DNA of 64,000 nucleotides from Nitrospirota bacterium (GTDB lineage Bacteria > Nitrospirota > Thermodesulfovibrionia > Thermodesulfovibrionales > JdFR-88): NCBI GenBank assembly GCA_021789215.1, contig JAJYJS010000006.1:25875-89874 (forward strand). Direction: 5' to 3'. Position numbers and translations under genes: made by a program. Of the stretch, positions 2,520 through 35,183 are shown piece by piece. The notes below the pieces were generated by a model. It searched no databases, had not been told where the DNA came from, and saw only the letters and a program-made list of their open reading frames with translations. Numbering within the stretch: the first letter of the stretch is position 1; the number at the start of each line of letters is the position of its first letter.

Positions 2520-2546
2520 CGTTTCCTCCTTAAAATAACTCTCTTC

Positions 2547-3683
2547 TTACCATGTATACATTACGCCAAGGGCAATAGTGTCCTGGCTCTTTGACCTGCC
2601 CGAATCGAAAGACTTTTCGTTGGACCAGTCATGCCTGTACTCGGGCCTGAGGAGAAGGTTTTTCGCAAGCGTGTACTGCCCTGTAACGGTTACCTCCTTC
2701 AGGTTCTGGGGCGTGCCCGTCCTTACGCCCTGGGGGTCCCTGAAAAGCTCTGCCCTTATGGTGCCGCTTATCCTTTCGGTAAAGACGTAGTTGACGTAGC
2801 CCGCTATCCCGTACCACTTGTCGTCTTCGCCTTTGCCCGCGAGATTCTTGTCCGTCGCGTAATCGGTGTTTACGACAAGCGTGAGGTCTTTTACCGGCTT
2901 CACCGTGCCCACCCAGTCGAAAAGGAACCTGTTGTCCGAATCGTTATGGTCCTGCTCCGGGCCGTACATCAGGTTGAAGACAAGGCTCGAATTGGCGCCC
3001 GGGGCGACTGTGGCGCTCAGTCCGTATGTCTTGCCGTTGTTGTTGTCGGAGGAGTTGTCCCAGCCGTTCACCACATAGGCATTGGCTGAAAGCATGCCGG
3101 AGAACGTGTAGGCCGCCATGAAGCCGGTGTGCGTGAAGGGGATGGCGTAATTGAAGAGGAACGAACGCGAGTAGTTATAGTCGTCCTTTGCCTCGATGAC
3201 CTCCGCCCCGTGCATCGTGACGAACTTCCCGAAGCGGAGTTTCAAGCCCTTGCCCACCGGGGCCACGTAATCGATGTAGGCCTCTGTCAGGTCAAACGGC
3301 TCGTCCGCATCGCTTGCGCCAAGCCCTCTCGAATGGATGAACTTGGCGGTCTCGCCCATCGAGACCTTTACCTTGTAGCCCACCCCTCCCACGGGCGCGT
3401 CCCTGAGGAACTGTATCTCCGCCAGGTCCAGCGTAAAGCTGTTCGCCTTGTGGTCAAAGACCCTCAGCTCGTTCTCGCCGTCTTTGGGGTCCTTGAAGTT
3501 GTACGTGTATCCCCCCTGGAGATAAACGCTCAGGCCGAGCGCCTTTTTTATGTCCTCCGGGGAAACGGGCGACGGTTTTTGCGCGTCTTCCGCGTGCGCC
3601 GGCCGCGCCAGAAACACCTGCGGCATCGCCAGGGCCAGTATGAACGTCAGGACGAATCCGAAATGCAACAACCTGTTTTTCAT
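2547..3683 (-). CDS. Outer-membrane beta-barrel porin (OmpL/porin-2-like) of the amtB operon
   Basis: I trimmed the start to MKNRLLHF, which is preceded by AAAGGAGG. It has a signal peptide ending AHA-ED, alternating beta-strand pattern and a C-terminal aromatic end ...GVMYTW. Confidence 0.7.
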   Translation of the reverse strand: MKNRLLHFGFVLTFILALAMPQVFLARPAHAEDAQKPSPVSPEDIKKALGLSVYLQGGYTYNFKDPKDGENELRVFDHKANSFTLDLAEIQFLRDAPVGGVGYKVKVSMGETAKFIHSRGLGASDADEPFDLTEAYIDYVAPVGKGLKLRFGKFVTMHGAEVIEAKDDYNYSRSFLFNYAIPFTHTGFMAAYTFSGMLSANAYVVNGWDNSSDNNNGKTYGLSATVAPGANSSLVFNLMYGPEQDHNDSDNRFLFDWVGTVKPVKDLTLVVNTDYATDKNLAGKGEDDKWYGIAGYVNYVFTERISGTIRAELFRDPQGVRTGTPQNLKEVTVTGQYTLAKNLLLRPEYRHDWSNEKSFDSGRSKSQDTIALGVMYTW

Positions 3684-18180: not shown

Positions 18181-20325
18181 ATGAACATCGAGGTAAAGAG
18201 CGTTGAAGACCTCCTCCAGAAGGTGCGCTCCTATAATCCGGGAGCGGACCTGGAGTTCATCAGGAGGGCCTATTTCTTCTCCTTCGAGGCCCACGGGGAG
18301 CAGAAAAGGCACGAGGGCTCCCCGTATATAGAGCACCCGCTCGCGGTGGCCTCCATCCTGGCCGACATGAAGATGGACACAGTGAGCATAGCGGCGGGGC
18401 TCCTGCACGACACCATCGAGGACACCCCGACGATAAAGGAGGACATCCAGAAGCGCTTCGGGTACGAGCTTGCGTTCCTTGTGGACTCGGTGACCAAGCT
18501 GGGGAAGATACAGTTCCAGTCCAAGGAGGAGGCGCAGGCGGAGAACTTCCGCAGGATGCTCCTGTCCATGGCCGAGGACATACGGGTGATAATGGTGAAG
18601 TTCGCCGACAGGCTGCACAACATGCGCACCCTCCAGTACCTGCCCCAGCACAAGAGGCTCCGCATCGCGCAGGAGACGCTCGAGATATACGCCCCTCTGG
18701 CCAACCGCCTTGGTATCGGATGGCTGAGGATAGAACTCGAGGACCTGAGCTTCAAGTACCTCCTTCCAAAGCTCTACGATGAGCTTGCGGCAAAGGTCGC
18801 CTCCCGCAAGGAGGAGCAGGAAGGCTACATCAGCAACATCATAGAGATGGTGAAAAAGAAGCTGGCCGAGGAGGGGCTTGAGGGCAGCGTAAAAGGCAGG
18901 ATAAAGCACTACTACGGCATATACCAGAAGATGCAGAGGCAGGGGATTCCGTTCGACCAGATATACGACGTCCTCGGCATCAGGATAATAACCGGCACCA
19001 AGGCAAGCTGCTACGCCATACTGGGGCTCATCCATTCCCTCTGGAAGCCGATACCGGGGAAGTTCAAGGACTATATCGGGGTGCCCAAGTCCAACATGTA
19101 CCAGTCCCTGCACACCACGGTCATCGGACCGGAGGGAAAGCGGGTGGAGTTCCAGATAAGGACCGAGGAGATGAACCAGGTTGCCGAGGAGGGCATCGCG
19201 GCACACTGGCGGTACAAGGAAAAGGGCCATATCAACCCCAGGGACGACCGCTACATCTCCTGGCTGAGGAATTTTATCGCCGAGCTTCAGGACGTGCGCC
19301 AGACGCCCAGGGAATTCATGGACGCGGTGAAGTCCGAGGTCGTCCCGGACACCATATACGTCTTCACGCCCAAGGGCGAGATAAAGGAACTGCCCATAGG
19401 CGCCACGCCCGTGGACTTTGCCTACAGCATACACACGCAGGTGGGCAACAGGTGCGTGGGGGCAAAGGTGAACGGCCGGATGGCGCCGCTCCGTTACAGG
19501 CTCAACAACGGGGACACCGTCGAGGTGATGACCCAGCAGAACCACACGCCAAGCCGCGACTGGCTTGGCTTTGTCGCCACCTCCAGGGCGAAGTCCAGGA
19601 TAAGGCAGTGGATAAAGGCCGAGGAGCGCAAGGAGTCCGTGGAGCTTGGGACGAGGCTCCTGGAATCGGAGCTTAAAAAGCGGGGGATCCCCGTCTCCGC
19701 GCTCAAGGGAGACGGCATCGGGCAGGCGTCGGAGGCGTTCAATTTCCAGAGCGTTGACGACATGCTCGTCGCGATAGGCTACGGGAAGATGTCCGCGCAG
19801 CAGGTGGCAAACAGGATAGCACCGGAATCCGCCCTCCCCGAGGCCCCGCCGCCCGTAAAGCACAAGGAGACCAGGGAGGCGGAGGAGGAGAAGGGCATAA
19901 CCATCACGGGCATGAGCAACATCCTCTACCACATATCCAGGTGCTGCTACCCGATACCCGGGGACAACCTCGTGGGCTTCATAACGAGGGGCAAGGGCGT
20001 GAGCATCCACAGGAGGAGCTGCCCCAACCTGCCAAAGCTCGCGGTGGACGAGGACAGGCTGATATCCGTGCAGTGGAAGCCCAACGAGGGCGCGATGAAC
20101 CACGCGAAGATCGTGGTGGACACGGTGGACAAGCCCGGCATCGTGGCGAACCTCTCATCGGCCATCTCCTCGATGAACATAAACATACATCACATGGAGG
20201 CCATAACGAGCCAGCTCCAGAAGGCCCGCATATCGTTTGTCCTGGAAGTGAAGGACCGCTCCCAACTCAACGTCGTGACCCACAAGCTCATGCAGGTGGA
20301 AGGCGTCACCAGCGTGAGGCGCTAG
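18181..20325 (+). CDS. rel: Bifunctional (p)ppGpp synthetase/hydrolase Rel/SpoT
   Basis: HD hydrolase domain (HPLAVASILA...LLHDTIEDT), synthetase motif (YQSLHTTV), then TGS and C-terminal ACT regions. 714 aa. Confidence 0.97.
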   Translation: MNIEVKSVEDLLQKVRSYNPGADLEFIRRAYFFSFEAHGEQKRHEGSPYIEHPLAVASILADMKMDTVSIAAGLLHDTIEDTPTIKEDIQKRFGYELAFLVDSVTKLGKIQFQSKEEAQAENFRRMLLSMAEDIRVIMVKFADRLHNMRTLQYLPQHKRLRIAQETLEIYAPLANRLGIGWLRIELEDLSFKYLLPKLYDELAAKVASRKEEQEGYISNIIEMVKKKLAEEGLEGSVKGRIKHYYGIYQKMQRQGIPFDQIYDVLGIRIITGTKASCYAILGLIHSLWKPIPGKFKDYIGVPKSNMYQSLHTTVIGPEGKRVEFQIRTEEMNQVAEEGIAAHWRYKEKGHINPRDDRYISWLRNFIAELQDVRQTPREFMDAVKSEVVPDTIYVFTPKGEIKELPIGATPVDFAYSIHTQVGNRCVGAKVNGRMAPLRYRLNNGDTVEVMTQQNHTPSRDWLGFVATSRAKSRIRQWIKAEERKESVELGTRLLESELKKRGIPVSALKGDGIGQASEAFNFQSVDDMLVAIGYGKMSAQQVANRIAPESALPEAPPPVKHKETREAEEEKGITITGMSNILYHISRCCYPIPGDNLVGFITRGKGVSIHRRSCPNLPKLAVDEDRLISVQWKPNEGAMNHAKIVVDTVDKPGIVANLSSAISSMNINIHHMEAITSQLQKARISFVLEVKDRSQLNVVTHKLMQVEGVTSVRR

Positions 20326-22276: not shown

Positions 22277-23650
22277 ATGAGCATACTGCTGCCGTACCAG
22301 AAAAGGTGGCTTGAGGACAGGAGCCCGCGCAAGATATGGCTTGCCGCGAGGCAGACCGGAAAGTCCTTCTCGCTGGCCCTTGAGGCCGTGATGGAGGCGC
22401 TTGAGAAAAGGCGCTCCACAAGCCTCGTCCTTTCTGCGTCGGAGAGGCAGTCCAGAGAGGTAATGGAAAAGGTGCTGACCCACCTCCGGTACCTCCACGC
22501 GCGGTCCGGGGAGAAAGTGTCCTCCGAGGATACCCGCGAGGAGGTGCGCCTGCCAAACGGTTCCCGCATAATATGCCTCCCGGCAAATCCGGACACGGTG
22601 CGCGGGTTTTCGGGCAACGTGTTCCTGGACGAGTTCGCCTTCCACAAGGATGCGGAGGAGATATGGCGCGCGATGTACCCCGCCGTGACCCGCGGCTTCA
22701 AGGTGCGCGTCTCCTCCACCCCAAACGGCAAAAACAGGAACCTTTTCCATGCCCTCTGGAGCCGTGAGGAAAAAAACGGTCTTTTCTCCCGCCACAGCAC
22801 CACCATTTACAAGGCCGTGGACGAGGGGCTCCCCATAAATGTGGACGAACTGCGGGCGGGGATAATGGATGCCGCCTCGTGGGCGCAGGAGTACGAGTGC
22901 AGGTTCCTTGACGAGGAGACCTCCTTCATCCCGTATGAACTGATAACGGCCTGCGAGGATGAAGGGGCGGCGAAAGACCTGAAGCCACTGGATACCGGTT
23001 TGCACCGGTATGACGGACAAAAAGATTTAAGCAGCCATTCCGGAGGCAGTAATCCGGAATCCAGCGGCTTTAAAGGTGACTTCTACCTTGGCCTGGACAT
23101 CGGACGCAGACACGACCTCACCGTCTTCTGGCTCTGGGAGAAAAAGGGAGACGTTTACTGGACGCGGATGGTGAGGGAGTTGAGGAACACCCCGTTTTCC
23201 ATACAGAGGGATTTTCTGTACGCGCTGATGGAGGGCTCCCTTGGCGTAAAGGTGAGGCGGGCGGCGATAGACGCAACGGGCATCGGGGCCCAGATGGCCG
23301 AGGAGGCGATTGACAGGTTCGGCCCCGTGGTCGAGCCCGTGCAGTTCACGCTCAATGTGAAGGAGGATTTGGCAGTGAGCCTCCGCAGGCTCATGGAGGA
23401 GCGCCGGGTGCGCATCCCCTCGCGGGCCGGCATACGGGAAGACTTCCACAGCATAAGGCGCGTCACGACCCCGGCGGGAAACACGCGCTTCAGCGCGGAA
23501 GGCAGTGATGACGGACATGCAGACAGGTTCTGGGCGGCGGCCCTGGGCATACACGCGGGCAAAAAGGCCCCCGCAACAGTCTTCGAGTACGAGGCCGCGG
23601 GGCGGAGGACATTTTTTCCAAGCAGCTTTAAAGGGCTTTTTTCTGACTGA
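22277..23650 (+). CDS. terL: Terminase large subunit
   Basis: N-terminal LLPYQKRWLED, Walker A AARQTGKS, Walker B VFLDEFAF, and a C-terminal nuclease-like region with acidic residues. 457 aa. Confidence 0.9.
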   Translation: MSILLPYQKRWLEDRSPRKIWLAARQTGKSFSLALEAVMEALEKRRSTSLVLSASERQSREVMEKVLTHLRYLHARSGEKVSSEDTREEVRLPNGSRIICLPANPDTVRGFSGNVFLDEFAFHKDAEEIWRAMYPAVTRGFKVRVSSTPNGKNRNLFHALWSREEKNGLFSRHSTTIYKAVDEGLPINVDELRAGIMDAASWAQEYECRFLDEETSFIPYELITACEDEGAAKDLKPLDTGLHRYDGQKDLSSHSGGSNPESSGFKGDFYLGLDIGRRHDLTVFWLWEKKGDVYWTRMVRELRNTPFSIQRDFLYALMEGSLGVKVRRAAIDATGIGAQMAEEAIDRFGPVVEPVQFTLNVKEDLAVSLRRLMEERRVRIPSRAGIREDFHSIRRVTTPAGNTRFSAEGSDDGHADRFWAAALGIHAGKKAPATVFEYEAAGRRTFFPSSFKGLFSD

Positions 23651-23665
23651 AAGGAGGCTGATAAA

Positions 23666-24847
23666 TTGAAGACCAGACCAGTCCTGGACGAGATAGCCGG
23701 AGCCAGGAACGACATATCGCTCTTTGGTGATTTCCTGCCGAAAAATGTTTTGCGGAACCCGGACAGGCTCCTGCGGTCAACCGGGAAGGGTATCGGGCTT
23801 TACGAGGAGCTTCTCTACGACCCCCAGGTGAGGGCATGCCTCCAGACCAGGAAGCTTGCGGTCGTGGGCAGGGAATGGGAGGTGGTGCCGGGGGGCGGAG
23901 CCCCGGAGGACGCCCGCATCGCGGACTTCGTGAAAGAGGCCCTGCTTGCCTTCGACTTTGACAGCGCAAGGACCGCGCTCCTTTCCGCCGTGGTGCTTGG
24001 CTTCAAGACGGCGGAGATAATGTGGGAGTATTCGGAGGGCTCCGTCTGGATAAGGGAGATGGCCGGAAGGGCCTCAAGCAGGTTCCGCTTCGACGCAGCG
24101 GGAAACCTGAGGCTCCTCACGCCCGGCAATATGTTTTACGGAGGCCCCGTGCCGGAAAGGAAGTTCCAGGTGTTCCGCTATGGGGGCGAAAACGGCTCGC
24201 CTTACGGCGACGGGCTTGGGGCAAGCCTCTACTGGCCCGTATGGTTCAAGAAGAACGCTCTCCGGTTCTGGATGGTGTTCGCGGAAAAGTTCGGCTCGCC
24301 CACCGTCATAGGCAAGTACCCGCCCGGCACGCCCAGGGAGCACCAGGACGCGCTGATGGGCGCGCTTGAGGCCATACAGCAGGAATCGGCGATAAAGATA
24401 CCGGAGACGATGCGGATAGAGCTGCTTGAGGCGCAGAGGAGCGGCGCCGTGAACACCTACGACACCCTTTGCGCGTTCCTCAACGGGGAGATCGCGAAGC
24501 TCCTCCTGGGGCAGACACTGACGACCGAAATCGGGCAGACGGGCTCCTACGCGGCAAGCAGGACGCACAACGAGGTGAGGATGGACTACATAAAGGCCGA
24601 TGCCGACCTGCTCTCGGGCGCGCTGAACAGGCAGCTTGTAAGATGGCTGGTCGATTTCAACTTCCCGGCCCCGAGGCCCGCCTCGCGCTACCCGAAACTC
24701 TGGATAAGACAATCGGGCGAGGAGGATTTAAAAGCCCTTGCCGAGAGGGACGCGCTGCTTCTCAAGATGGGGGTAAAGATCCCGGCCAGGTATTTTTACG
24801 GGACCTACGGCCTGCCCGAACCCGCGGACGGGGAGGAGACGCTTTGA
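23666..24847 (+). CDS. Portal protein, Mu gp29-like (DUF935 family)
   Basis: TTG start with AAGGAGG 8 nt upstream. LYEELLYDPQVRACLQTRKLAVVGREWEVVP fits the DUF935 pattern, and it sits right after terL. Confidence 0.8.
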   Translation: MKTRPVLDEIAGARNDISLFGDFLPKNVLRNPDRLLRSTGKGIGLYEELLYDPQVRACLQTRKLAVVGREWEVVPGGGAPEDARIADFVKEALLAFDFDSARTALLSAVVLGFKTAEIMWEYSEGSVWIREMAGRASSRFRFDAAGNLRLLTPGNMFYGGPVPERKFQVFRYGGENGSPYGDGLGASLYWPVWFKKNALRFWMVFAEKFGSPTVIGKYPPGTPREHQDALMGALEAIQQESAIKIPETMRIELLEAQRSGAVNTYDTLCAFLNGEIAKLLLGQTLTTEIGQTGSYAASRTHNEVRMDYIKADADLLSGALNRQLVRWLVDFNFPAPRPASRYPKLWIRQSGEEDLKALAERDALLLKMGVKIPARYFYGTYGLPEPADGEETL

Positions 24848-25239
24848 TAAGGATATCGATGAGCGGCGGGGAGATAGCGCGCTCCATCTCCCAAAGGGCT
24901 GGAGACCTTGGCCCGGCGCTGGAGCAGATAGGCGCAATGCTTGCCGGGTCCGTGCGGAGAAACTTTGACGAGGGCGGAAGGCCCGAAAAGTGGGAGCCGC
25001 TTAAAGGGAAAAACGCGGCGAGGACGCCGCTGGTCAAAACGGGCGGCCTCAGGGACTCCATACGGGCGGCGCTGGAAAACGGGGCCATAGAACTTCAAAG
25101 CCCCCTGCCCTATGCGTCTTTTCAGCAGGAGGGGACAAGGACGATACCCGCGAGGCCGTTTCTCGTGGTGCAGGAGGAGGACTACGAAAAGGCGGGGCGG
25201 ATAATAGCGGGATACCTTATGAAAGGAGGGGACGAGTGA
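24844..25239 (+). CDS. Virion morphogenesis protein, Mu gpG / P2 gpS-like
   Basis: WEPLKG...LVKTGGLRDSI...LPYASFQQEGTRTIPARPFL matches the tail_comp_S/gpG family pattern. TTGA overlap with the portal; ATG 24859 is an alternative start. Confidence 0.8.
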   Translation: MIRISMSGGEIARSISQRAGDLGPALEQIGAMLAGSVRRNFDEGGRPEKWEPLKGKNAARTPLVKTGGLRDSIRAALENGAIELQSPLPYASFQQEGTRTIPARPFLVVQEEDYEKAGRIIAGYLMKGGDE

Positions 25240-26114
25240 TGTGGACGGCGGTTTTCAAGTCAGGCACTCACACGGATTCGGAGGGCAGGACGAGGCACTG
25301 GAGCGACGAGGACCTGGACAGGATCGCCTCGCGGTACGACCCGGCGCGGCACGAGGCCCCGGTGGTCATCGGCCACCCAAGGGACAACGCGCCCGCATGG
25401 GGCTGGGTGGAGGGGCTGAAGAGAGAAGGCGGCCTGCTCTTTGCGAAGCTCAGGCTTGTGCCGGAGTTCGCGGAGATGCTAAGGAAGGGGCTTTTCAGGA
25501 AGCGCTCCATCTCGCTCTATCCGGATATGGGCCTGAGGCACATAGGCTTTCTGGGCGCGGCCGCGCCCGCCGTAAAGGGGCTGCCGGATGTCAGTTTCTC
25601 CGCCGGGGAAGACGCGACCGGCGTGGAAGTCGAATTCAAGGGAAAGGAGGCGAAAGAGATGAACGGCTTTATCGAGAGGCTTAAAAAATTTTTAAAAGAG
25701 GAGCTTGGCATCGAGACTGCCGATTTGAGGCAGAAGGAAAAAGAACTGGCGGACAGACAGGGCGCGCTCCGCAAGGCGGAAGCGGCGGCCTTCTGCGAAG
25801 GGCTCCTGAAAGAGGGCAGGGTCACGCCGGCCATGTTGAAGCAGGGGCTCCCAGGCTTCATCGAGGTGGTCTCAGGCATCCAGACCAGCCACGAGTTTGC
25901 CGGGGGCGAAGAGGCCCGGAGCCCGCTGGATTTCCTTAAAGGCTTTCTGAAGGCCCTGCCCGTGTGCGTGAGCTACCAGGAACACACGCCCGCACAGGAA
26001 GAACCCGATGAAAAAAGAAAGAGGCTCATCAGCCGGTACATGGAAGACCACGGCAGGCACACCTACAGGGACGCGCTCATCGCGGTATCGAAGGAACACC
26101 CGGAACTTTTTTAA
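25236..26114 (+). CDS. Capsid scaffolding / maturation protease protein (P2 gpO- / Mu gpI-like)
   Basis: The N-terminus FKSGTHTDSEGRTRHWSDEDLDRIASRYDP...VVIGHP...GWVEGLKREGGLLFAKL parallels the P2 gpO N-terminus as I recall it. The C-terminal half is a charged coiled coil. Confidence 0.7.
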   Translation: MMWTAVFKSGTHTDSEGRTRHWSDEDLDRIASRYDPARHEAPVVIGHPRDNAPAWGWVEGLKREGGLLFAKLRLVPEFAEMLRKGLFRKRSISLYPDMGLRHIGFLGAAAPAVKGLPDVSFSAGEDATGVEVEFKGKEAKEMNGFIERLKKFLKEELGIETADLRQKEKELADRQGALRKAEAAAFCEGLLKEGRVTPAMLKQGLPGFIEVVSGIQTSHEFAGGEEARSPLDFLKGFLKALPVCVSYQEHTPAQEEPDEKRKRLISRYMEDHGRHTYRDALIAVSKEHPELF

Positions 26115-26609: not shown

Positions 26610-27539
26610 ATGCCTGAAACGAAATCGCTTCACGTGGACGCAATACTTTCAGAGATGTCCGTAAAGTACAGGAACGAGGCTATGATATGGCCGCTCCTCA
26701 TGCCAGTTGTGAAGGTGCAGAAGCGCTCTGACAAGTTCTTCGTCTATCAGAAGGAGGACAGCTACCGCCTGGCCGATGACGCCGTTGCGCCAAAGGGCCT
26801 GCCCAACGAGATAACATGGGGGGTGCTGGAGGACAACTACTCGGTGGTCGACCACGCCCTTGGCGACTGGCTCCCGCAGGAGGTGATAGACAACGCCGAC
26901 GGCCCCATCCAGCCCGAGGCCGACACGGTGGACTTCCTTAACATGCTCCTGGACGTGAGGCAGGAAAAGAGGGTGGCCGATATCGTCTTTTCCCAGGCTA
27001 CCTACCCGGCGGGCAACCAGACCGCCCTCTCCGGCACCGCCCAGTGGGGCGGCACGACGGACGACCCCGTGGGCGACGTTATGAACGCCGTCGAGGGGTG
27101 TTTCATAAGGGCCAACACGCTGGTGTTCGGGGCCGAGGCGTGGGCCGCGTTCAGGAAGCTTCCGGAGGTGCTTGAGGCCGTCAAGTCCGTGAACACGGGC
27201 GCAAACGGGTTCGCCACGGCCGGCGAGGTCGCCGCCCTCTTCGAGGTGGAGCACGTGCTTGTTGGGAGGGCGCGCTACATCACATCCAAAGAGGGGCAGC
27301 CGTCCGCTTACACAAGGCTCTGGGGCAAACATTGCGCCGCGCTCTACACGGCCAGTAACCCCGGCCTGAGGAGCATCACCTTCGGGCTCACCTTCTCCGA
27401 GATGGCGCGCGAGGTCCAGAGGGACTTCGACCCCAAGCGCGGCGTGAAGGGCGCTCACTATATAAAGGCCGCCTGGAACTCCGACGAAAAGGCCGTCGCG
27501 CCGGAGCTGGGCTGCCTGATAAGAAACGCCGTGGCGTAA
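26610..27539 (+). CDS. Major capsid protein (HK97-fold, gpE-like family)
   Basis: The start is trimmed to MPETKSLHVDAIL... with AAAGGAGG upstream. 309 aa. The position after scaffold and decoration fits, and it is followed by a strong stem-loop. Confidence 0.8.
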   Translation: MPETKSLHVDAILSEMSVKYRNEAMIWPLLMPVVKVQKRSDKFFVYQKEDSYRLADDAVAPKGLPNEITWGVLEDNYSVVDHALGDWLPQEVIDNADGPIQPEADTVDFLNMLLDVRQEKRVADIVFSQATYPAGNQTALSGTAQWGGTTDDPVGDVMNAVEGCFIRANTLVFGAEAWAAFRKLPEVLEAVKSVNTGANGFATAGEVAALFEVEHVLVGRARYITSKEGQPSAYTRLWGKHCAALYTASNPGLRSITFGLTFSEMAREVQRDFDPKRGVKGAHYIKAAWNSDEKAVAPELGCLIRNAVA

Positions 27540-28036: not shown

Positions 28037-28362
28037 TGCTTACGATAATCGAGGGGGACCGGGTGCTGCTTGAGTACCAGCTCCTTAAAGACAGGAAGCC
28101 CGTAAACATCAAAGGATGCACCTTCATGCTCCGGGTTAAGCGGAGGCCGGAGGCGCGGGCAAAGGCGCTCCTGCCGCCGGTCAGGGGCTCAATCAGAAAC
28201 GCGAGGGCGGGGAGGTTCGCGTTCCTCCTGGAAGGGGCGGCCCCCGCAAGCGGGTTCATGGAGATAACGATGGAAAGGCCCGGCAGAAAGATAAGGCTCA
28301 CCCCGCCGGGGGGCGTTGAGATAAAAATAACCGGAAAAGAGGGGCAAGGGAGAGGGGAATGA
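28036..28362 (+). CDS. Hypothetical head-tail joining protein
   Basis: 108 aa. The start overlaps the previous stop (TGATG), and there is an ATGA overlap with the next gene. Confidence 0.4.
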   Translation: MLTIIEGDRVLLEYQLLKDRKPVNIKGCTFMLRVKRRPEARAKALLPPVRGSIRNARAGRFAFLLEGAAPASGFMEITMERPGRKIRLTPPGGVEIKITGKEGQGRGE

Positions 28363-28787
28363 AATTCGGGGACATGGAGGAAAAAATCCTCGCGGCGCTT
28401 GAGGGCGGCCTGCCGTATCTGAAAACCGTCGGCACATACGCGGGGCAGTTCGAGGCGGACGTAAAGACGATGCCCGCACCGTTTCCCGCGGCATATGTGG
28501 TCTACAGGGGCTCCTCTTTCGAGCCGGTGGACTCGGCAAACCATATGGAGACGGCGGACTTCACGGTGCTTGCGGCCGCAAGAGGTTTTTCAGGGGGGGA
28601 AGACCTCAGAAAATCGGGATACGGCATCTACCGGATGACGGACGACATCATCCTCACGCTCACCAACCAGAGGTTCGGCCTGGATATCGCGCCGGTAAGG
28701 CCGCTCAGGCTCTCGCTGGTCTTCGCCTCGAAGACCGTTGCCGTTTACGCGGTGGACTTCCGCACAAGCTTCGACAGGACATTTTAA
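28359..28787 (+). CDS. Mu gp37-like protein (DUF1834), head-tail joining / tail completion
   Basis: 142 aa. LPYLKTVGTYAGQFE...PAAYVVYRGSSF...FTVLAAAR fits the gp37 family as recalled. Its position after gp36-like also fits. Confidence 0.6.
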   Translation: MKFGDMEEKILAALEGGLPYLKTVGTYAGQFEADVKTMPAPFPAAYVVYRGSSFEPVDSANHMETADFTVLAAARGFSGGEDLRKSGYGIYRMTDDIILTLTNQRFGLDIAPVRPLRLSLVFASKTVAVYAVDFRTSFDRTF

Positions 28788-28807: not shown

Positions 28808-29851
28808 ATGGGCGCAACAGGCACCGAATCAAGGGCGGCATTCCGCAGGGCGGCCTCGTGGGGCACGCCATCGGCAGCGGGCGCGAATGACGGACTGCTG
28901 GTCCTGCCGCACACGCTGAAGAAGGAAAGGCCCGTCCTGCCGGACGACTCCCTCGGCATCTGTTTTCAGACCGATGCGGCGGACGGCGGCATCAAGGTCG
29001 AGGGGGACATCCCGGCATATCTCAGGTACGACTCCCTGGACCTTCTGCTTGCGCTTGCGATGGGGCAGACGGCGGGCACTCCGGTACAGCAGGGCGCAGC
29101 GGAGGCGTATCTCCAGAGCCTCAAACTGAAGGAGAACACGGACGGGCTTTTCGGCACGTTTTGCGTCAGCAACGGCGTGAACATAGACGAATACGGCTCC
29201 GTGAAGATAACAGGGTTCACGATAAAGGGAGAGGCGGGGAAACCGGTCGAGATAAGCTTCCACTCGGTCGCAAACGACAGGACAACAAATTCGGCCCTCA
29301 ACACAACGGCCTCGTTCGCGGCAGTAAGCCTCTTCGAAAAGGCCAACCGGGTGCTATTCAGCCAGGGCGTCTTCCGGCTGAACCCGCAGGCGGACGCGGC
29401 GCTCGCGGACCCGGACAAAATCTACCCCTCCGCATTCGAGCTTTCCTTCAAGAGAAAAATGAAAGGGATATACGGCGCGGGCGCGCAGGCGGACAGGGTA
29501 GACGAGCCCTCCAACGACGGCCAGCCGGACATAAGGCTAAAGCTAACGTTCCCCAGGTATACCCAGGCGGCAAAGGGGTATTTCGAGGACTGGGACACGC
29601 AGAGGAACAAAAAAATGGACGCCGTCTTCACGGGCGCGCAGATAGCGGCCCCGTACAACAGGTTTATGAGGCTCCAGCTTCCGAACCTCAAGTTCTCGCA
29701 GGTGGAGCTGCCAATGGAAAGGGGCATCCTGAAAAGTCCGGTGGAGTTTGTCTGCCTCGGGTGCGATACAGCACCCGCGGGCATGGCGGGCATAACGATG
29801 CCCTTCCAGATAGACCTCATGAACCGCCAGGGCACGGACGTGCTGGGGTAA
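28808..29851 (+). CDS. Major tail (tube) protein, non-contractile type
   Basis: 347 aa with AGGAGG upstream. It is the first large ORF after the connectors and directly precedes the frameshifting chaperone pair. There is no separate sheath plus tube pair. Confidence 0.55.
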   Translation: MGATGTESRAAFRRAASWGTPSAAGANDGLLVLPHTLKKERPVLPDDSLGICFQTDAADGGIKVEGDIPAYLRYDSLDLLLALAMGQTAGTPVQQGAAEAYLQSLKLKENTDGLFGTFCVSNGVNIDEYGSVKITGFTIKGEAGKPVEISFHSVANDRTTNSALNTTASFAAVSLFEKANRVLFSQGVFRLNPQADAALADPDKIYPSAFELSFKRKMKGIYGAGAQADRVDEPSNDGQPDIRLKLTFPRYTQAAKGYFEDWDTQRNKKMDAVFTGAQIAAPYNRFMRLQLPNLKFSQVELPMERGILKSPVEFVCLGCDTAPAGMAGITMPFQIDLMNRQGTDVLG

Positions 29852-30026: not shown

Positions 30027-30404
30027 ATGGAGATAGGAGGGTTGCAGCGCGGCGATTTCGCGGTATGGATGCCCTTCGGCCAGGACGCCGAGGTGCTGAT
30101 ACGCTACGTGGACCGCGAGGAGCTTGAGGAGATAAGGAGAAAATCGGCCACAACAAGATGGGACGGCAGGGGCAGCGTGGAGCATACGCTTGACTATTTG
30201 CAGGCGGACATCCTGCTTGGACGCGCTTCAGTGCGGGGCTGGAAAGGTTTTACCGCAAACGGCGAGCCCTTTCCCTACAGCGGGGAAAACCGCGATTTCC
30301 TCATGAGAAAAAGCGTGGAGTTCGCCCGCTTCGTGAACTCCGCCTGCATGGACATGCAAAGACTTGCCGGACAGGAGCGGGCGCAGAAGAGAAAAAACTC
30401 CTGA
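30027..30404 (+). CDS. Tail assembly chaperone (lambda gpG analogue)
   Basis: 125 aa with AAGGAGG upstream. It ends 4 nt after a slippery heptamer, and a second frame continues to the tape-measure start. Confidence 0.7.
   Translation: MEIGGLQRGDFAVWMPFGQDAEVLIRYVDREELEEIRRKSATTRWDGRGSVEHTLDYLQADILLGRASVRGWKGFTANGEPFPYSGENRDFLMRKSVEFARFVNSACMDMQRLAGQERAQKRKNS
30392..30398 (+). promoter_or_regulatory. Programmed -1 ribosomal frameshift slippery heptamer A_AAA_AAC
   Basis: The zero frame reads AGA AAA AAC TCC TGA. The -1 frame from 30392 is open (KKLLSHIRARLDYPGVACANC...) through to the stop at 30704-30706. Confidence 0.7.
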
Positions 30405-30706
30405 GCCACATCAGGGCGAGGCTCGATTACCCTGGTGTGGCGTGCGCGAACTGCATGGACATGGAGGAAAAGGACGGGGCTGTGCCCCCGTGCAGGGGCG
30501 AAGGAGGCTGCCCGGTGCCTGCCGTCTCACCCGGCGAGGAGCGCATCCTCCAGATGAGGTCCACGCTTATAAGGCTGAAGGGGCTTGCGTGCGCCGGGGC
30601 CATACTGGGCGCATACGGGGCGGCAAGGGAGGATTTGGAATTCCTGGCATTTATCGAATCGGAGCTGAGAGAGATGAAAAAGGAGGACAAACAGCAAAAT
30701 GGCTGA
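30392..30706 (+). CDS. T-extension of the chaperone (gpGT analogue), reached only by -1 frameshift
   Basis: The -1 frame has no stop between 30392 and 30706. Its end overlaps the start of the tape-measure-position gene by 8 nt. It contains CX2C-X12-C-X5-C. Confidence 0.6.
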   Translation, partial: KKLLSHIRARLDYPGVACANCMDMEEKDGAVPPCRGEGGCPVPAVSPGEERILQMRSTLIRLKGLACAGAILGAYGAAREDLEFLAFIESELREMKKEDKQQNG

Positions 30707-31250
30707 AATAAAGCTCACCATAGAGGCCGAGGACAGGGCGTCGGACGTCTTTATGGCGGTAGCGGGCGCGGTGGACAACATAGGCTCCGCCGTCTCCGAC
30801 GCCGCCCTGAGGACTGGTTCTCTGGGAGACGCGCTCGACGCACTGCCGCTCTCGAAAACCCTTTACCTGGACGTCTCGGAGGCGGTGCAGGCGGCAAGCG
30901 CGGTCTCCGCCGCGCTGGAGTCCATCCCGGACATCTCCTACAAGGACGTAATCCTCAGGTACTTCACGCAGGCCTCCCCGGTGATGCCGTTTTCGGAGGG
31001 AATGGAGATGATCGGCCTCAAGATGAAATCGCTTCCGGTGGAGACAACCCACACGGTAAGGTTTTTTACCGGCCTTGACGGCGGCGCACAGCCAACGGTA
31101 AAAGGCGGCGGCAATATCAGCATCGGCCCGTTTTACTTTAACGGCAAAAATCCGCCTGAAGCCTTGCAGATAGAGGCCCAGATCGCGGACTCGATAAAAT
31201 CGGGGCGGAGCCCGATCGTGGCGGCCTTGGCGAAAGCGGGAATAAAATGA
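30699..31250 (+). CDS. Tape-measure-position protein, unusually short (183 aa)
   Basis: It lies immediately after the G/GT pair and has an Ala-rich helical N-terminal half (AVAGAVDNIGSAVSDAALRTGSLGDALDAL...AVQAASAVSAALESI). Confidence 0.5.
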   Translation: MAEIKLTIEAEDRASDVFMAVAGAVDNIGSAVSDAALRTGSLGDALDALPLSKTLYLDVSEAVQAASAVSAALESIPDISYKDVILRYFTQASPVMPFSEGMEMIGLKMKSLPVETTHTVRFFTGLDGGAQPTVKGGGNISIGPFYFNGKNPPEALQIEAQIADSIKSGRSPIVAALAKAGIK

Positions 31251-31268
31251 AGAGGATTTTTTTCACGG

Positions 31269-31295
31269 GTCATACCGGCGAAGGCCGGTATCCAG
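31269..31295. repeat. Palindromic repeat, hairpin type (GTCATACCGGC-GAAG-GCCGGTATCCAG)
   Basis: The same hairpin occurs at 20327 and 46958. It translates to the pseudo-peptide VIPAKAGIQ and generates the spurious ORF 31247..31441. Confidence 0.85.
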
Positions 31296-31368
31296 TGATG
31301 TTGAGGCATGCCGGAATGACCGGAAAAATTATACTCAGGGGCGCTGCTTGCTGCGCCCGGTCTTTGCA

Positions 31369-31442
31369 GTCATTGCGAGGAGCGGAGCGACAAAGCAATC
31401 TGAAGGCCTGGGGCCGGATTGCTTCGCTTTGCTCGCAATGAC
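31369..31442. repeat. Palindromic repeat, long type (GTCATTGCGAGG...GCAATC // GATTGC...CTCGCAATGAC)
   Basis: 74-bp inverted-repeat element. A related copy lies at 49879..49963. Confidence 0.85.
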
Positions 31443-31458
31443 GGGGAGAAAAACACAT

Positions 31459-32835
31459 ATGAAATCCTGCTATCAAAACATTTTGGAGACCTCGGCCGTC
31501 ACGCTTTCCTCCGGGGCGGCGGACCTCTCGTACCCGCTCTACAGGCTCTGGGACAGGGACATAGGGCGGCCCTTCAAGGCGGCGGACACGGGCACCCTTG
31601 AGATAAAAATAGACCAGGGCGCGGCCCCGCTTGCCATAGACAGGCTCATTATTCCGGCGGGGCACAACCTCTCCGGCGCAAGGCTCAAGGTGAGCGGCTC
31701 CGACGACGATATAACGTACAGGACCCTGCTTGACGCCTCTCTGCCGGACAACTCTCTTATAAACAGGGAACTTGCCGCAGCGGACGATTTCAACAACAGC
31801 TCGCTGGATGCAAACCTGTGGGGCCTGCTCCTGGGGGGCGGCGCAGGGGCCGTGGCGAGCGAGACCACATCACTTGATTTAAAGACGGCCCAGGCGGCCG
31901 AATACTCCGCCATATGCCTTAAGACCGCATTCGCCAGGGCGGCGGGCCAGTCCCCGCAGACAATAACAAATACGCTTGGCGTGGGAGCCAACGCGCTGTA
32001 TTCGCTTAGCCTCGTGCGCTCCGCCGCCCTGCCCTCAGCCGCCTTCGACAGCTGGGCGCAAAGGGTGGTGCTCACACGGGTAACCTCGGCCGGAAACCTC
32101 CAGTTCGTGTACTACGGCGCAAACGGGACGACATATTACTTCAACGGCGCAAGCGGCCAATGGGGCACCCCCATGAACGATGCTTACACGGCAGCCCTTA
32201 ACAGGCGGCTGCGAATCCGCCTTGAAAACAGCGGCTCCGCGTGGAGGCTCACTCTCCGCGACAACTCCAATGCGGACGCCCTCCTCAGGCAGACCCCGTG
32301 GGTGGGCTGGGCGGACACTTACGCGGACGGCACACCGGAGTGGCTCATAGCCGGCGACCCTTCGAACTCATTCAACTTTGGCGAGATGAACGTTTATCTT
32401 TTCGACACGGGGCTTTCCGCGCCCGCGACAAAAAGATACATGAAGGTTGCCGTGACGGCCTCCCCTGCCACCCCGCAGATGCCGGAGCTTTTTTTAAGCC
32501 CCACCTATATCTGGGAAAAACTCCCCGCGCGTCCGGCAGGGCCGCTTGAGGACGTCTTTAACGTGGAGGCCCAGACGGCCACGAGCGGGCGCGACCACTT
32601 CCTCGTCCACGGCAGCCCCAAGCGGCAGCGGGTCTACCATGTGACAAACGCCGGTTCCGCGCAGTACGCAAGCATAAAGGCGCTCTGGGGCGCGTGGGGC
32701 GGAGCAAAACCCTTCTGGCTCTGCGACCATGAGGGAGACTGGATTTTCGGGAAGCTCTCCCGCCCCCTAAACCTGAAGGAAGAAGGAAGCAACAAATACA
32801 GCTTCGATTTTGAATTTCTGGAGGTCCTGCCATGA
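31459..32835 (+). CDS. Distal tail / baseplate-type protein (458 aa)
   Basis: The start is trimmed to MKSCYQNILE, because the track start at 31348 reads through the repeat element. It follows the tape-measure-position gene and has an ATGA overlap with the next gene. Confidence 0.5.
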   Translation: MKSCYQNILETSAVTLSSGAADLSYPLYRLWDRDIGRPFKAADTGTLEIKIDQGAAPLAIDRLIIPAGHNLSGARLKVSGSDDDITYRTLLDASLPDNSLINRELAAADDFNNSSLDANLWGLLLGGGAGAVASETTSLDLKTAQAAEYSAICLKTAFARAAGQSPQTITNTLGVGANALYSLSLVRSAALPSAAFDSWAQRVVLTRVTSAGNLQFVYYGANGTTYYFNGASGQWGTPMNDAYTAALNRRLRIRLENSGSAWRLTLRDNSNADALLRQTPWVGWADTYADGTPEWLIAGDPSNSFNFGEMNVYLFDTGLSAPATKRYMKVAVTASPATPQMPELFLSPTYIWEKLPARPAGPLEDVFNVEAQTATSGRDHFLVHGSPKRQRVYHVTNAGSAQYASIKALWGAWGGAKPFWLCDHEGDWIFGKLSRPLNLKEEGSNKYSFDFEFLEVLP

Positions 32836-35183
32836 CCACCGTCTCTCAGGCGCGGGACTCCTCGCGCATAAGGCCCGTCTACCTGGTGGAGATAACGCTG
32901 GGGAACTCCGGCCCCACGCTCTATTTCTCCGACCGGAACCTGACCGTGGCCGGGCAGATATACGAGGACTACCTGGCGGACCTCTCGGGCCTGGGCGACG
33001 AGGTGCACCGCGCGGACTCAAGCGCCCTGAACTCTGACATCACCCTCACGTTCAAAAACGGCAGGATAAGCCGCCTGGGCACGGACTACAACTACCTCAT
33101 CGAGCTGGGCGGCACCTACCCCTTCGAGGCCGCCATCTGCCAGATATCGGAGACATACCTTGACGACGCGGGCACCCCCTCGGACACGGCCCTTATCTTC
33201 AAGGGGGCGCTCGATTCGCCCTCCGATATAGACCTGATGGGTTTCAAGTGCAAGGTAAGCTCGATGGCCTTCCTCATGGACAAGCGATGGGCGCAGTCCC
33301 AGATAAACCTGACGGACTACCCCAACGCTTACGAGGACGTGGGCAAGTACGAGCCCATAGTCTACGGCCGGAACATCCTCATGCCCGCCCTCCGGACGGA
33401 CTGGGGCGCGAAGACAACCTTGGTTGCCGACATCACGGCCGCGCAGATGACGCTGGAGCTTTCGGACGCCTCGCGCTTCCCCGCCTCGGGCGACATCGTG
33501 ATAGACAGCGAGCAGATACACTACACATCGAAGACGGGCAACGTCCTCAATATCTACCAGAGGGGTGCGGGGGGCACAACGGCCCAGCCCCATGGGGCCG
33601 GGGCCGACGCCTGGCAGTACCAGGCGGCCTACGACAGCCTGCTTGCGGGCCACCCGCTGGCAAGTGTGGGGGACGTCTTCGCGGAGATAGCGGGCAAGTT
33701 CTGGAGGGTGACAAGCGGGGTGACCTCCGTGGTGGTGAACGGCAAGCAGGTCCTCCGGGCCACGGATGTCCTCAGCGTGAGGGGCGCGATAGACAACATG
33801 AGCATCACGGACGGGATAACGATAAACGACGGGATATCGGTCTCCCAGGGCTCCCACAGCCACAATATCGGCGGGCTCACGAGCACCATCTATGGCAATA
33901 ACGCCTCCAGTTACGGCCAGCACAACACGGCCGTCCAGGGGGCCCTCACGAACCTCTATGACACAAACCAGGGCACATACTGCTATTCGGGCAAGGCCGA
34001 CAGCTTCACAGGCTGGTTTACCGTGACGGTGAACTTCCCAGCCTATTCCGGCCCGGCCCCCTCTGCCGTGAGGGTGTGCATCACGCACCAGAGCTGGAAT
34101 AACGGCAGCACGGGCAATGACTATGTACGGCTGACCTATCCGCAGACGATAAACCTGGACAAGTCCAACACCAAGGTCACGCAAAAGTTCAACGTGGGGA
34201 CCACGGTGCCCGCGGCCGCCACCTATATCGTCGACTGGGACGGCTCGACAAGCCAGGCCTGGGGCTATGTCTTTGAGATTTGGCTGGAGATAGACACGGC
34301 CGCCACGACGTCGAACCCGGCCGCGGGGGTTGCCAAGAGCGGCACGGTCTCGAAATCGGGCACGGTCTCGATGAGCGGCGAGGTCGTCTCCACCCACACG
34401 GTGGAGCGCCTCCATGCCGTGGTGAGCGGGTACCAGGACGACGCCCTGGGCACCTACACCGGCACGCCCTTAGCCGTCATCGAGCAGCCCAATCACGTGT
34501 TCAGGCACTTCCTCGCGGCCCTCACCGGGCTCTTTCCCACGACGGACATAGACTTCCACGTGGCCGGGGCGCTCTATGCCTCATGGGGCTACAAGTTCGC
34601 CTTCGTGATAGACGGCCAGATAAGGCCGTGGGACTTCCTGAAAAAACTCGCCTTCGAGTGCCGGAGCACGCTCTCCTATCAGGCGGGCCTCTGGAGCCTT
34701 GAGGCCATACCGGACGCGGCCCCCGCCCCGGTGAAGACCGTCTCGAAGGATGATTTGGCCGGGCAGTTCGCCAAGTTCAAGTTCGCGAAGATGCCCTGGA
34801 CGGAGCTTGCCAACAGCCTCCAGGCGAGCTTCGCCGTCCTCTACTCCCGGATACCGCAGAAGAGCGAGTCCCCGTGGCTTGGCACGGTAAAGGCCGATGA
34901 CGCGGCCTCCCAGGCCAAATACGGCAAGTACCAAAAGACATTCGAGTTCGAGGCTGTGCGCGACCAGGCGATGGCCCAGAGTGTGCTTGGCCACATCCTC
35001 ACCGAGCTTAAAACCCCGCTCATGACCGTGGAGTTCCCCGTCTTCTGGGAGGACTTCGGCCTGAACGTGGGCGACACTGTGCAGATAGACAACCCGCTCT
35101 ACGGCGGCAGGCTCTTCTTCATCGAGAAGATGGCCCGCCAGAGCCCCTCCACCGCCCTCATCACGGCAATGGAGTGGTGGTAG
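32832..35183 (+). CDS. Large tail tip / host-specificity-type protein (783 aa)
   Basis: It is the last and largest ORF. The N-terminus is RIRPVYLVEITLGNSGPTLYFSDRNLTVAGQIYEDYL, there is an internal Ser/Thr/Gly/Asn-rich beta region, and a triple (K/M)SG(T/E)VS micro-repeat. Confidence 0.55.
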   Translation: MTTVSQARDSSRIRPVYLVEITLGNSGPTLYFSDRNLTVAGQIYEDYLADLSGLGDEVHRADSSALNSDITLTFKNGRISRLGTDYNYLIELGGTYPFEAAICQISETYLDDAGTPSDTALIFKGALDSPSDIDLMGFKCKVSSMAFLMDKRWAQSQINLTDYPNAYEDVGKYEPIVYGRNILMPALRTDWGAKTTLVADITAAQMTLELSDASRFPASGDIVIDSEQIHYTSKTGNVLNIYQRGAGGTTAQPHGAGADAWQYQAAYDSLLAGHPLASVGDVFAEIAGKFWRVTSGVTSVVVNGKQVLRATDVLSVRGAIDNMSITDGITINDGISVSQGSHSHNIGGLTSTIYGNNASSYGQHNTAVQGALTNLYDTNQGTYCYSGKADSFTGWFTVTVNFPAYSGPAPSAVRVCITHQSWNNGSTGNDYVRLTYPQTINLDKSNTKVTQKFNVGTTVPAAATYIVDWDGSTSQAWGYVFEIWLEIDTAATTSNPAAGVAKSGTVSKSGTVSMSGEVVSTHTVERLHAVVSGYQDDALGTYTGTPLAVIEQPNHVFRHFLAALTGLFPTTDIDFHVAGALYASWGYKFAFVIDGQIRPWDFLKKLAFECRSTLSYQAGLWSLEAIPDAAPAPVKTVSKDDLAGQFAKFKFAKMPWTELANSLQASFAVLYSRIPQKSESPWLGTVKADDAASQAKYGKYQKTFEFEAVRDQAMAQSVLGHILTELKTPLMTVEFPVFWEDFGLNVGDTVQIDNPLYGGRLFFIEKMARQSPSTALITAMEWW

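Follow-up and report, generated by a model that had tools for sequence, protein, structure and literature searches.

The 183-aa protein encoded at positions 30699-31250 on the plus strand of the window (by which we mean the whole stretch of 64,000 nucleotides analysed here) can be recognised from profile homology as a true member of a tape measure protein (TMP) family, reduced to the two conserved ends of that family. That a protein ruler governs how long a tail becomes is a textbook principle. Natural examples close to the lower limit are, to our knowledge, almost unknown, the 216-aa protein of RcGTA being the one case with a solved structure. We consider it probable that the gene in the window encodes a maintained, minimal TMP that retains only the two functional ends, and that it serves a tail of a few rings, specified by a cluster restricted to head and tail genes. 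The most interesting aspect of this locus and its relatives is a graded series of TMP lengths with a hard floor.

The gene sits directly behind a frameshifted pair of tail assembly chaperone genes, whose products hold the TMP during tube polymerisation. Chaperone G (30027-30404, plus strand) is a 125-aa protein matching phrog_313 (E 4e-6), and the 3′ end of its gene, ...AGA AAA AAC TCC TGA, carries the in-frame heptamer A_AAA_AAC at 30392-30398. After G, the -1 frame stays open to a TGA at 30704-30706, and this stop overlaps the TMP start codon, an ATG at 30699 (ATGGCTGA). The -1 frame thus provides the T extension of a GT fusion (30392-30706, plus strand). Because the TMP start overlaps the stop of the T frame and follows G/GT, the gene occupies the usual position of a tape measure, confirming what the original prediction had proposed from gene order. 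It also lies 5′ of the homologues of a distal tail protein and a tail hub, as a TMP gene should. Its GC content by codon position (0.58/0.46/0.76, with a GC3 of 0.76) matches that of the neighbouring genes and identifies it as the coding frame. An antisense ORF at 30651-31052 has the inverse codon-position pattern and was rejected as a shadow ORF. Searches by tblastn with the T frame gave matches in every syntenic locus. The slippery heptamer (AAAAAAC or GGGAAAC) is kept in 10 related loci, hence in 11 of the 11 examined when the window is counted, regardless of whether the TMP is short or long. The T extension, which is reached only by frameshifting, contains a cysteine cluster (CxxC-x12-C-x5-C; 30437-30520) that recurs in the form CxxC-x12-C-x4-6-C in the related loci L012, L015 and L016. 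Since relatives with short and long TMPs alike possess this cluster, it is a feature of the family and not a peculiarity of the window.

The structural gene cluster covers about 14.5 kb of the plus strand, between a host relA/spoT gene (18181-20325) and a host ferredoxin/NrfD module (from 35685). It includes, in order, a large terminase (22277-23650), a Mu-type portal (23666-24847), a tail completion protein of the family of Mu G, P2 S and HK97 gp10 (24850-25239; PF05069, Phage_tail_S, E 1e-9, above the cut-off), a Mu-like protease/scaffold (25236-26114) and a major capsid protein (26610-27539). A Gp36 adaptor and then a 108-aa protein stand between the capsid protein and a tail terminator of the Mu Gp37 family (28359-28787; PF08873, E 1.3e-20; PF23840, E 1.6e-5). 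This is followed by a 347-aa tail tube protein of the Phage_tube_2 type (28808-29851; PF18906, E 4.9e-15), the only copy in the genome. Downstream of the chaperones and the TMP come a distal-tail-like protein (31459-32835), whose start at MKSCYQNIL was set by homology, and the last gene of the cluster, encoding a 783-aa tail hub or tip protein with a C-terminal Phage-tail_3 domain (32832-35183; PF13550, E 1.2e-6). Homologues of the hub likewise form the end of the cluster in loci L002 and L012.

Several genes around the TMP vary in layout among the related loci. Residues 1-95 and 328-465 of the distal-tail-like protein are homologous to proteins of 243-250 aa that follow the TMP in all related loci. 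The intervening insertion of about 230 aa (residues ~95-327), relative to the homologues in most loci, is also present in L001, and a similar domain is found in L014 in a separate 370-aa ORF (2165-3277) of the head-tail joining region. The tail completion gene has two alternative positions. In the window, L032, L039 and L038 it is of the Phage_tail_S type and follows the portal; in L002 (9552-9995), L005 (889-1341), L012 (9580-9987) and L010 it is of the HK97-gp10 type and separates the T frame from the TMP. The completion protein of the window shares the motif RDSI..PYASF..EGT with the product of the HK97-gp10-like gene directly before the short TMP of L002. In the gap between the TMP and distal tail genes of the window is an unstranded palindromic element (31369-31442) with perfect 11-nt arms, GTCATTGCGAG and CTCGCAATGAC. 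Two copies of these exact arms exist in the genome, the other being on contig C24. A 64-aa ORF at 31247-31441 is probably not a gene, given that it overlaps this palindrome and has no family match in Pfam or PHROGs and no tblastn match in any locus.

Direct searches with the 183-aa protein found no family in Pfam (to E 0.1), PHROGs or NCBIfam (to 0.01), and tblastn against 50,697 phage records found no match. Sequence searches of the PDB with two profiles returned spurious coiled-coil matches only. The curated TMP cores (PF10145, PF20155 and PF06791) are absent from the protein itself; the core sits in the segment that it is missing. Its relationships became visible with a profile seeded from the window protein and two homologues, one of 308 aa from a metagenome and one of 172 aa from a Nitrospirae MAG. 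Word-indexed protein searches, with a single sequence or a profile, gave few members, and the family was revealed by an exhaustive search of representatives. Run against 1.84 billion of these, the three-sequence profile recovered 126 proteins of 72-2431 aa, nearly all falling into two length groups, 157-399 aa and 600-1465 aa. Pfam TMP domains are present in 19 of the 45 long members (PhageMin_Tail in 10, TMP_3 in 8 and TMP_2 in 1), and the profile matches the C-terminal 130-200 aa of these PhageMin_Tail, TMP_3 and TMP_2 proteins. In P0049 (950 aa) and P0083 (1142 aa), PhageMin_Tail lies near residue 100 and the shared module at the C-terminus. Annotation would gain from a family model, because those members that have source names in the protein database are either called 'hypothetical protein' or wrongly named (YhgE, chemotaxis protein).

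Short and long members have three elements in common: an N-terminal motif, MAEVKIxIxAxDxAT; a core, IPDVTYKxVVVxYxTQASPVxPFxEG...SLP; and C-terminal helices, LARxIDxELAxxWRxNRSELRRAM. The N-terminal motif and the C-terminal module were found in members ranging from 169 to 1014 aa. When the window TMP is aligned with the 723-aa P0041, its residues 1-35 correspond to residues 1-35, and its residues 55-178 to residues 595-722. An hhalign comparison between the alignments of short and of long members gave a probability of 100% and an E value of 3e-47, over the last ~200 columns of the long profile. The window protein therefore keeps the N-terminal motif and a C-terminal module of ~130 residues, and is without the ruler segment of ~400-900 residues that separates them in its relatives of 600-1465 aa. 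The profile similarity to TMP families that the original prediction had proposed looking for is thus present. So is the pattern that it had named as the sign of a deletion remnant, in that long homologues align with this protein, quite literally, at their ends only.

Along the 183-aa chain, an N-terminal beta-strand motif, MAEIKLTIEAED, is followed by helices between residues 14 and 75, then by the core IPDISYKDVILRYFTQASPVMPFSEGMEM...SLP, which is conserved, and finally by C-terminal helices (residues 153-179). AlphaFold2, using a 34-sequence alignment, predicted three helices in the N-terminal part (14-37, 39-48 and 60-75) and three more beyond them (98-111, 153-168 and 172-179), with extended linkers in between. 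This model has a pLDDT of 70.7, a low pTM of 0.27 and no globular fold. About 88 of the 183 residues are helical in this low-pTM model, and the chain looks extended, not long. The description of the N-terminal half as Ala-rich and helical agrees with the three predicted helices there; Ala makes up 14% of the whole protein. A model from a 3-sequence alignment was unusable overall (pLDDT 38.6); it placed a strand at residues 4-8. Foldseek found no match to the 34-sequence model in the PDB (E about 8 or worse). No transmembrane-like segment is present in the protein. Since the shortest forms are without the hydrophobic segment of some mid-length members, a role as DNA conduit may have been lost.

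The related loci, gathered by TMP profile and tube alignment, share the gene order tube, G, T, TMP, distal tail and hub. About 45 loci whose tail tube is of the same family have an ORF of 537-1483 aa behind G/GT. The window gene is drastically short by this measure too, as had been claimed against the usual 600 to more than 1000 aa. The shortest TMPs are those of L002 (= G013; 172 aa), L012 (= G412; 177 aa), the window (183 aa), L010 (186 aa) and L005 (207 aa). Above these come L035 and L099 (279 aa each), L001 (313 aa), L032 and L039 (311-376 aa, in two paralogous copies), L014 (364 + 453 aa) and L038 (483 aa). Long forms are interleaved with them on the tube tree (L013, 1095 aa; L103, 1113 aa; L104, 878 aa; L037, 665 aa), and the family has further long TMPs in L016 (754 aa) and L015 (683 aa) and in P0041. 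Short and mid-length TMPs are confined to the part of the tube tree that is associated with Nitrospirota. On the tree, parsimony assigns 7 changes to the short state, at least two of them forced (the starred branches).

At least five syntenic clusters contain TMPs of ~170-210 aa, which are 34-45% identical to one another. The short forms (172-207 aa) reside in host-flanked, syntenic, head-tail-only clusters of about 14 kb in other Nitrospirota. Among complete members, defined as those with N-end, core and C-end (50 cluster representatives), the shortest lengths are 169, 170, 172, 177, 183, 183 and 187 aa. From 169 aa, lengths rise continuously (169 to 382 aa and onward), and no complete member is shorter than 169. 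The length floor of 169-187 aa corresponds to the N-end plus the C-module. Because this floor equals exactly two end modules, it defines the indispensable parts of a TMP.

Copy number and gene order also vary within this group. The relatives closest to the window cluster contain at least two paralogous, mid-length TMP-like genes per locus (308-376 aa), together with short N-terminal fragments. Loci with paralogous TMP-like genes are L001 (184-3831), L032 (8394-14083), L039 (8459-13789) and L014 (4322-12077). L032 and L039 each have chaperone G in duplicate, with one TMP-like gene placed between the tube gene and G; in L014 a TMP-like copy lies between adaptor and terminator. The tube proteins of L014, L015, L016, L113, L151 and L158 measure 416-430 aa owing to an insertion of ~70-80 aa after residue 90, and all loci with tube proteins of this size have long or mid-length TMPs. 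In L040 (contig JAEHJW020001499.1, 6995-8949) the tube gene is followed directly by the distal tail gene, and neither a TMP nor G/GT was found in the whole 15-kb locus, which groups close to L037 and L038. Three extra genes in L040 (125, 409 and 575 aa) lie between terminator and tube. That TMP and G/GT are missing together fits the short protein being the client of the chaperone.

A possible, though to us doubtful, alternative is that the gene is a deletion remnant in a decaying cryptic prophage, left by a recent in-frame loss from a TMP of ~700-1100 aa and no longer part of a working tail. Since the alignment to long homologues is confined to their ends, the short form does derive from loss of the middle. 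The early region, the Mu transposase and the lysis genes are missing from the cluster, and the palindromic element has inserted into the gap next to the gene. The family is also sporadic, being present in 8 of 401 genomes sampled in the phylum and in none of the 4 other sampled members of the window's family. Independent changes in TMP length have been repeated, and one relative has lost the gene completely; such scattered shortening and loss would also be expected from relaxed selection or decay. Against this, those structural ORFs of the cluster that were examined are intact and show translational coupling, and the frameshift site is conserved. The state of ~170-210 aa recurs in at least five divergent clusters with a sharp floor, which random deletions would not respect. 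Short TMPs from different hosts are all intact despite their divergence. Between close pairs of related short and mid-length TMPs, the window gene itself having no close relative, dN/dS is 0.36 (279-aa TMP) and 0.22 (311-376-aa TMPs), compared with 0.21 for chaperone G and 0.11-0.16 for the tube. The original prediction had also offered the alternative that most of the tape measure was deleted and the tail module non-functional. Its first half agrees with our alignments; the second seems less likely, as the recurrence of the short form, its length floor, the kept frameshift and the dN/dS of 0.22-0.36 do not look like fresh decay.

The cluster consists of head and tail genes without replication, integration or lysis genes, and is flanked by host genes, which is the gene content expected of a gene transfer agent (GTA). 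In those ORFs of the cluster that were scanned, we noticed neither an integrase nor a lysis gene. The C-terminal domain of Mu transposase had no match in the genome of the window or in G412, a weak negative given that control genomes also had no match. No long TMP was found elsewhere in the genome (89% complete), where there was no PhageMin_Tail match and TMP_3 matched below threshold only. In L002, host genes follow the hub, and in L012 (G412) they lie on both sides, ~1.7 kb upstream of the terminase and immediately behind the hub. With a head-tail-only cluster, host flanks and no transposase match in the genome, the proposal of a reduced or domesticated particle, rather than a normal Mu-like siphophage, finds partial support. 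The long-TMP relative L104 (878 aa) has a Mu transposase 13 kb upstream of its tube gene and is a Mu-like prophage. Two long-TMP relatives from IMG/VR, of 40.9 kb and 42.3 kb, are 100% complete by CheckV, one of them with terminal repeats, and the C-domain of Mu transposase had no match in these ~40-kb genomes. Phages of this family with long TMPs are thus not necessarily transposable. Among 14 control genomes, Phage_tube_2 matched in Caulobacter vibrioides only, which is known to have a GTA.

A further hallmark of GTAs, vertical inheritance at one conserved locus across a host clade, was not found. The family has the sporadic presence described above, and the three host-flanked clusters (window, L002 and G412) lie at different genomic sites with different flanking genes. 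This combination argues against an old, vertically inherited GTA. The gene content fits a GTA and the inheritance does not, and the cluster is a candidate GTA. It would represent a GTA-like particle that has been domesticated, or else a defective prophage of long residence in which the structural genes continue to be maintained.

By analogy with solved tails, a plausible assembly pathway can be proposed. The G/GT chaperones would hold a trimer of the TMP, and its C-terminal helices would dock in an initiator complex, which the distal tail protein (31459-32835) would build together with the hub (32832-35183). Around the short helical rod of residues 14-75, tube hexamers (28808-29851) would then polymerise. 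The N-terminal beta-strand of the TMP would pair with the tail completion protein (24850-25239) as its likely partner, and the Gp37 terminator would cap the tube last. The outcome would be a non-contractile tail whose tube has roughly 2-6 rings and measures 10-25 nm, and in which the TMP acts mainly as an assembly nucleator and channel plug. Any such particle would come from a ~14.5-kb, head-tail-only cluster that is unable to propagate itself.

The number of rings depends on how the scaling is done, and each estimate is an extrapolation that draws on unrelated systems. Scaling by nothing but the helical rod (about 60 residues) would give roughly 2-3 discs, the overall ratio of RcGTA about 4-5, and the 1.4-1.5 Å per residue of long tails about 6. 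Judged by these analogies, a tail of roughly 2-6 tube rings is most likely for the window cluster. The original prediction had applied 0.15 nm per residue and arrived at a tail of 25-30 nm. A very short tail is indeed to be expected, but this rule provides an upper bound, since the N-terminal helical rod makes up only about a third of the chain.

At so short a length, the protein might be functional without being a ruler. It could be a channel plug or an ejection (pilot) protein like the P22 gp26 needle, with tube length set in another way, or with the tube protein making one adaptor-like ring and hence a podovirus-like nozzle. The short TMP of RcGTA has been said to combine features of a TMP with those of the P22 tail needle (PMC7296036). 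At the length floor, essentially no ruler segment is left. The adjacency of tube and distal tail genes in L040, with neither TMP nor chaperone, hints at tube assembly without a ruler in this lineage, although L040 may be defective or may encode both outside the 15 kb seen. The retention of the G/GT pair with its frameshift points the other way, as does the continuum of intermediate lengths, which is what a length-setting ruler would produce. We regard a non-ruler role as unlikely. That the gene encodes a different tail protein, such as a terminator (as once suggested), a completion protein or a chaperone, merely standing in the tape measure position, would accord with its having no Pfam, PHROGs, NCBIfam or PDB match of its own, but is highly implausible in view of its strong profile homology to the ends of proteins with Pfam TMP domains and the separate identification in the cluster of a Gp37 terminator (28359-28787), a Phage_tail_S completion protein and the G/GT chaperones.

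The maintained minimal TMP that we favour belongs to a TMP family without annotation, in which related tail modules use rulers of ~170, 280, 310-380, 480 or 540-1100 aa, or none. Such a family represents a natural allelic series for asking what number of tube rings is needed by a minimal initiator. Should particles be made, they would extend GTA-like, short-tailed particles to the Nitrospirota. More tentatively, and with some doubt, we speculate that a lineage with a Mu-type head and a siphovirus-type tail in the Nitrospirota (Thermodesulfovibrionales) has repeatedly shrunk its TMP to a hard minimum of ~170 aa, made up of the N-terminal strand and a C-terminal module that docks to the hub, with complete loss of the gene in one relative, giving few-ring particles and an unrecognised, independently evolved GTA-like system. 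If this is true, its members would be natural intermediates from long-tailed towards short-tailed morphology, and a GTA-like system would exist in an anaerobic phylum.

Known systems offer partial counterparts to this protein. The TMP of RcGTA has 216 aa, comprising a helix of 113 aa, 83 aa of beta structure and loops, and a helix of 20 aa; it fills five tube discs, at a pitch of 38.3 Å, and the distal tail disc of a 49-nm tail (PMC7296036). The window protein resembles this protein (g11, Rcc01694, of Rhodobacter capsulatus) in being a very short TMP, 183 against 216 aa. Its predicted order of N-terminal helix, extended region (beta/loop in g11) and C-terminal helix, within ~200 aa, is the same, and in both cases the gene comes after the chaperone pair and belongs to a cluster of about 15 kb with head and tail genes only. 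By analogy, the predicted tail of the window cluster would be as short as the five-disc tail of RcGTA, or shorter. The two differ in the N-terminal helical part, with 113 residues in RcGTA and about 60 here, and in the surrounding machinery, which in the window comprises a Phage_tube_2 tube and a Mu-type portal, adaptor and terminator in another phylum. Moreover, RcGTA is a gene transfer agent, whereas the window cluster is known from its genes alone. Pfam, NCBIfam, PHROG, profile and PDB searches gave no sequence link to g11, which is not modelled in the PDB entries. The suggested fit to an RcGTA-type shortened tape measure extends to architecture, with no homology found in these searches. 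In view of this, and of neighbouring genes that belong to Mu and Phage_tube_2 types, the window TMP appears to be an instance independent of the RcGTA TMP and not a member of its family.

The long TMPs of the same family (L013, L016, L015 and P0041) share the N-terminal motif and the C-terminal module with the window protein. Their neighbours are also the same, namely the tube, G/GT with the same slippery site, the distal tail protein and the hub. They differ in possessing a middle of 400-900 aa, often with a PhageMin_Tail or TMP_3 core, and some come from complete ~40-kb phage genomes or from a prophage that encodes a Mu transposase. The natural TMP family described here resembles a series of the in-frame internal deletions that Katsura made in lambda gene H in 1987, which, as cited in PMC9022992, kept both ends and gave a shorter tail. 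In contrast to those deletions, the variants seen here are natural, are known from sequence alone and are taken to the extreme at which no ruler segment is left.

Staphylococcus phage 80alpha supplies a structural rationale for the conserved ends, through its TMP gp56, its completion protein gp51 and Tal. In 80alpha, the TMP pairs through its N-terminal strand with the tail completion protein and binds Tal through its C-terminal helices (doi 10.1101/2024.12.10.627806). The likeness is structural and by analogy. In 80alpha, gp56 spans 39-40 tube rings. The gene for a completion protein is present in the window and adjoins the short TMP gene in L002, L005 and L012. Contacts of the 80alpha kind, between strand and completion protein at one end and between helices and Tal at the other, would explain why a TMP keeps both of its ends.
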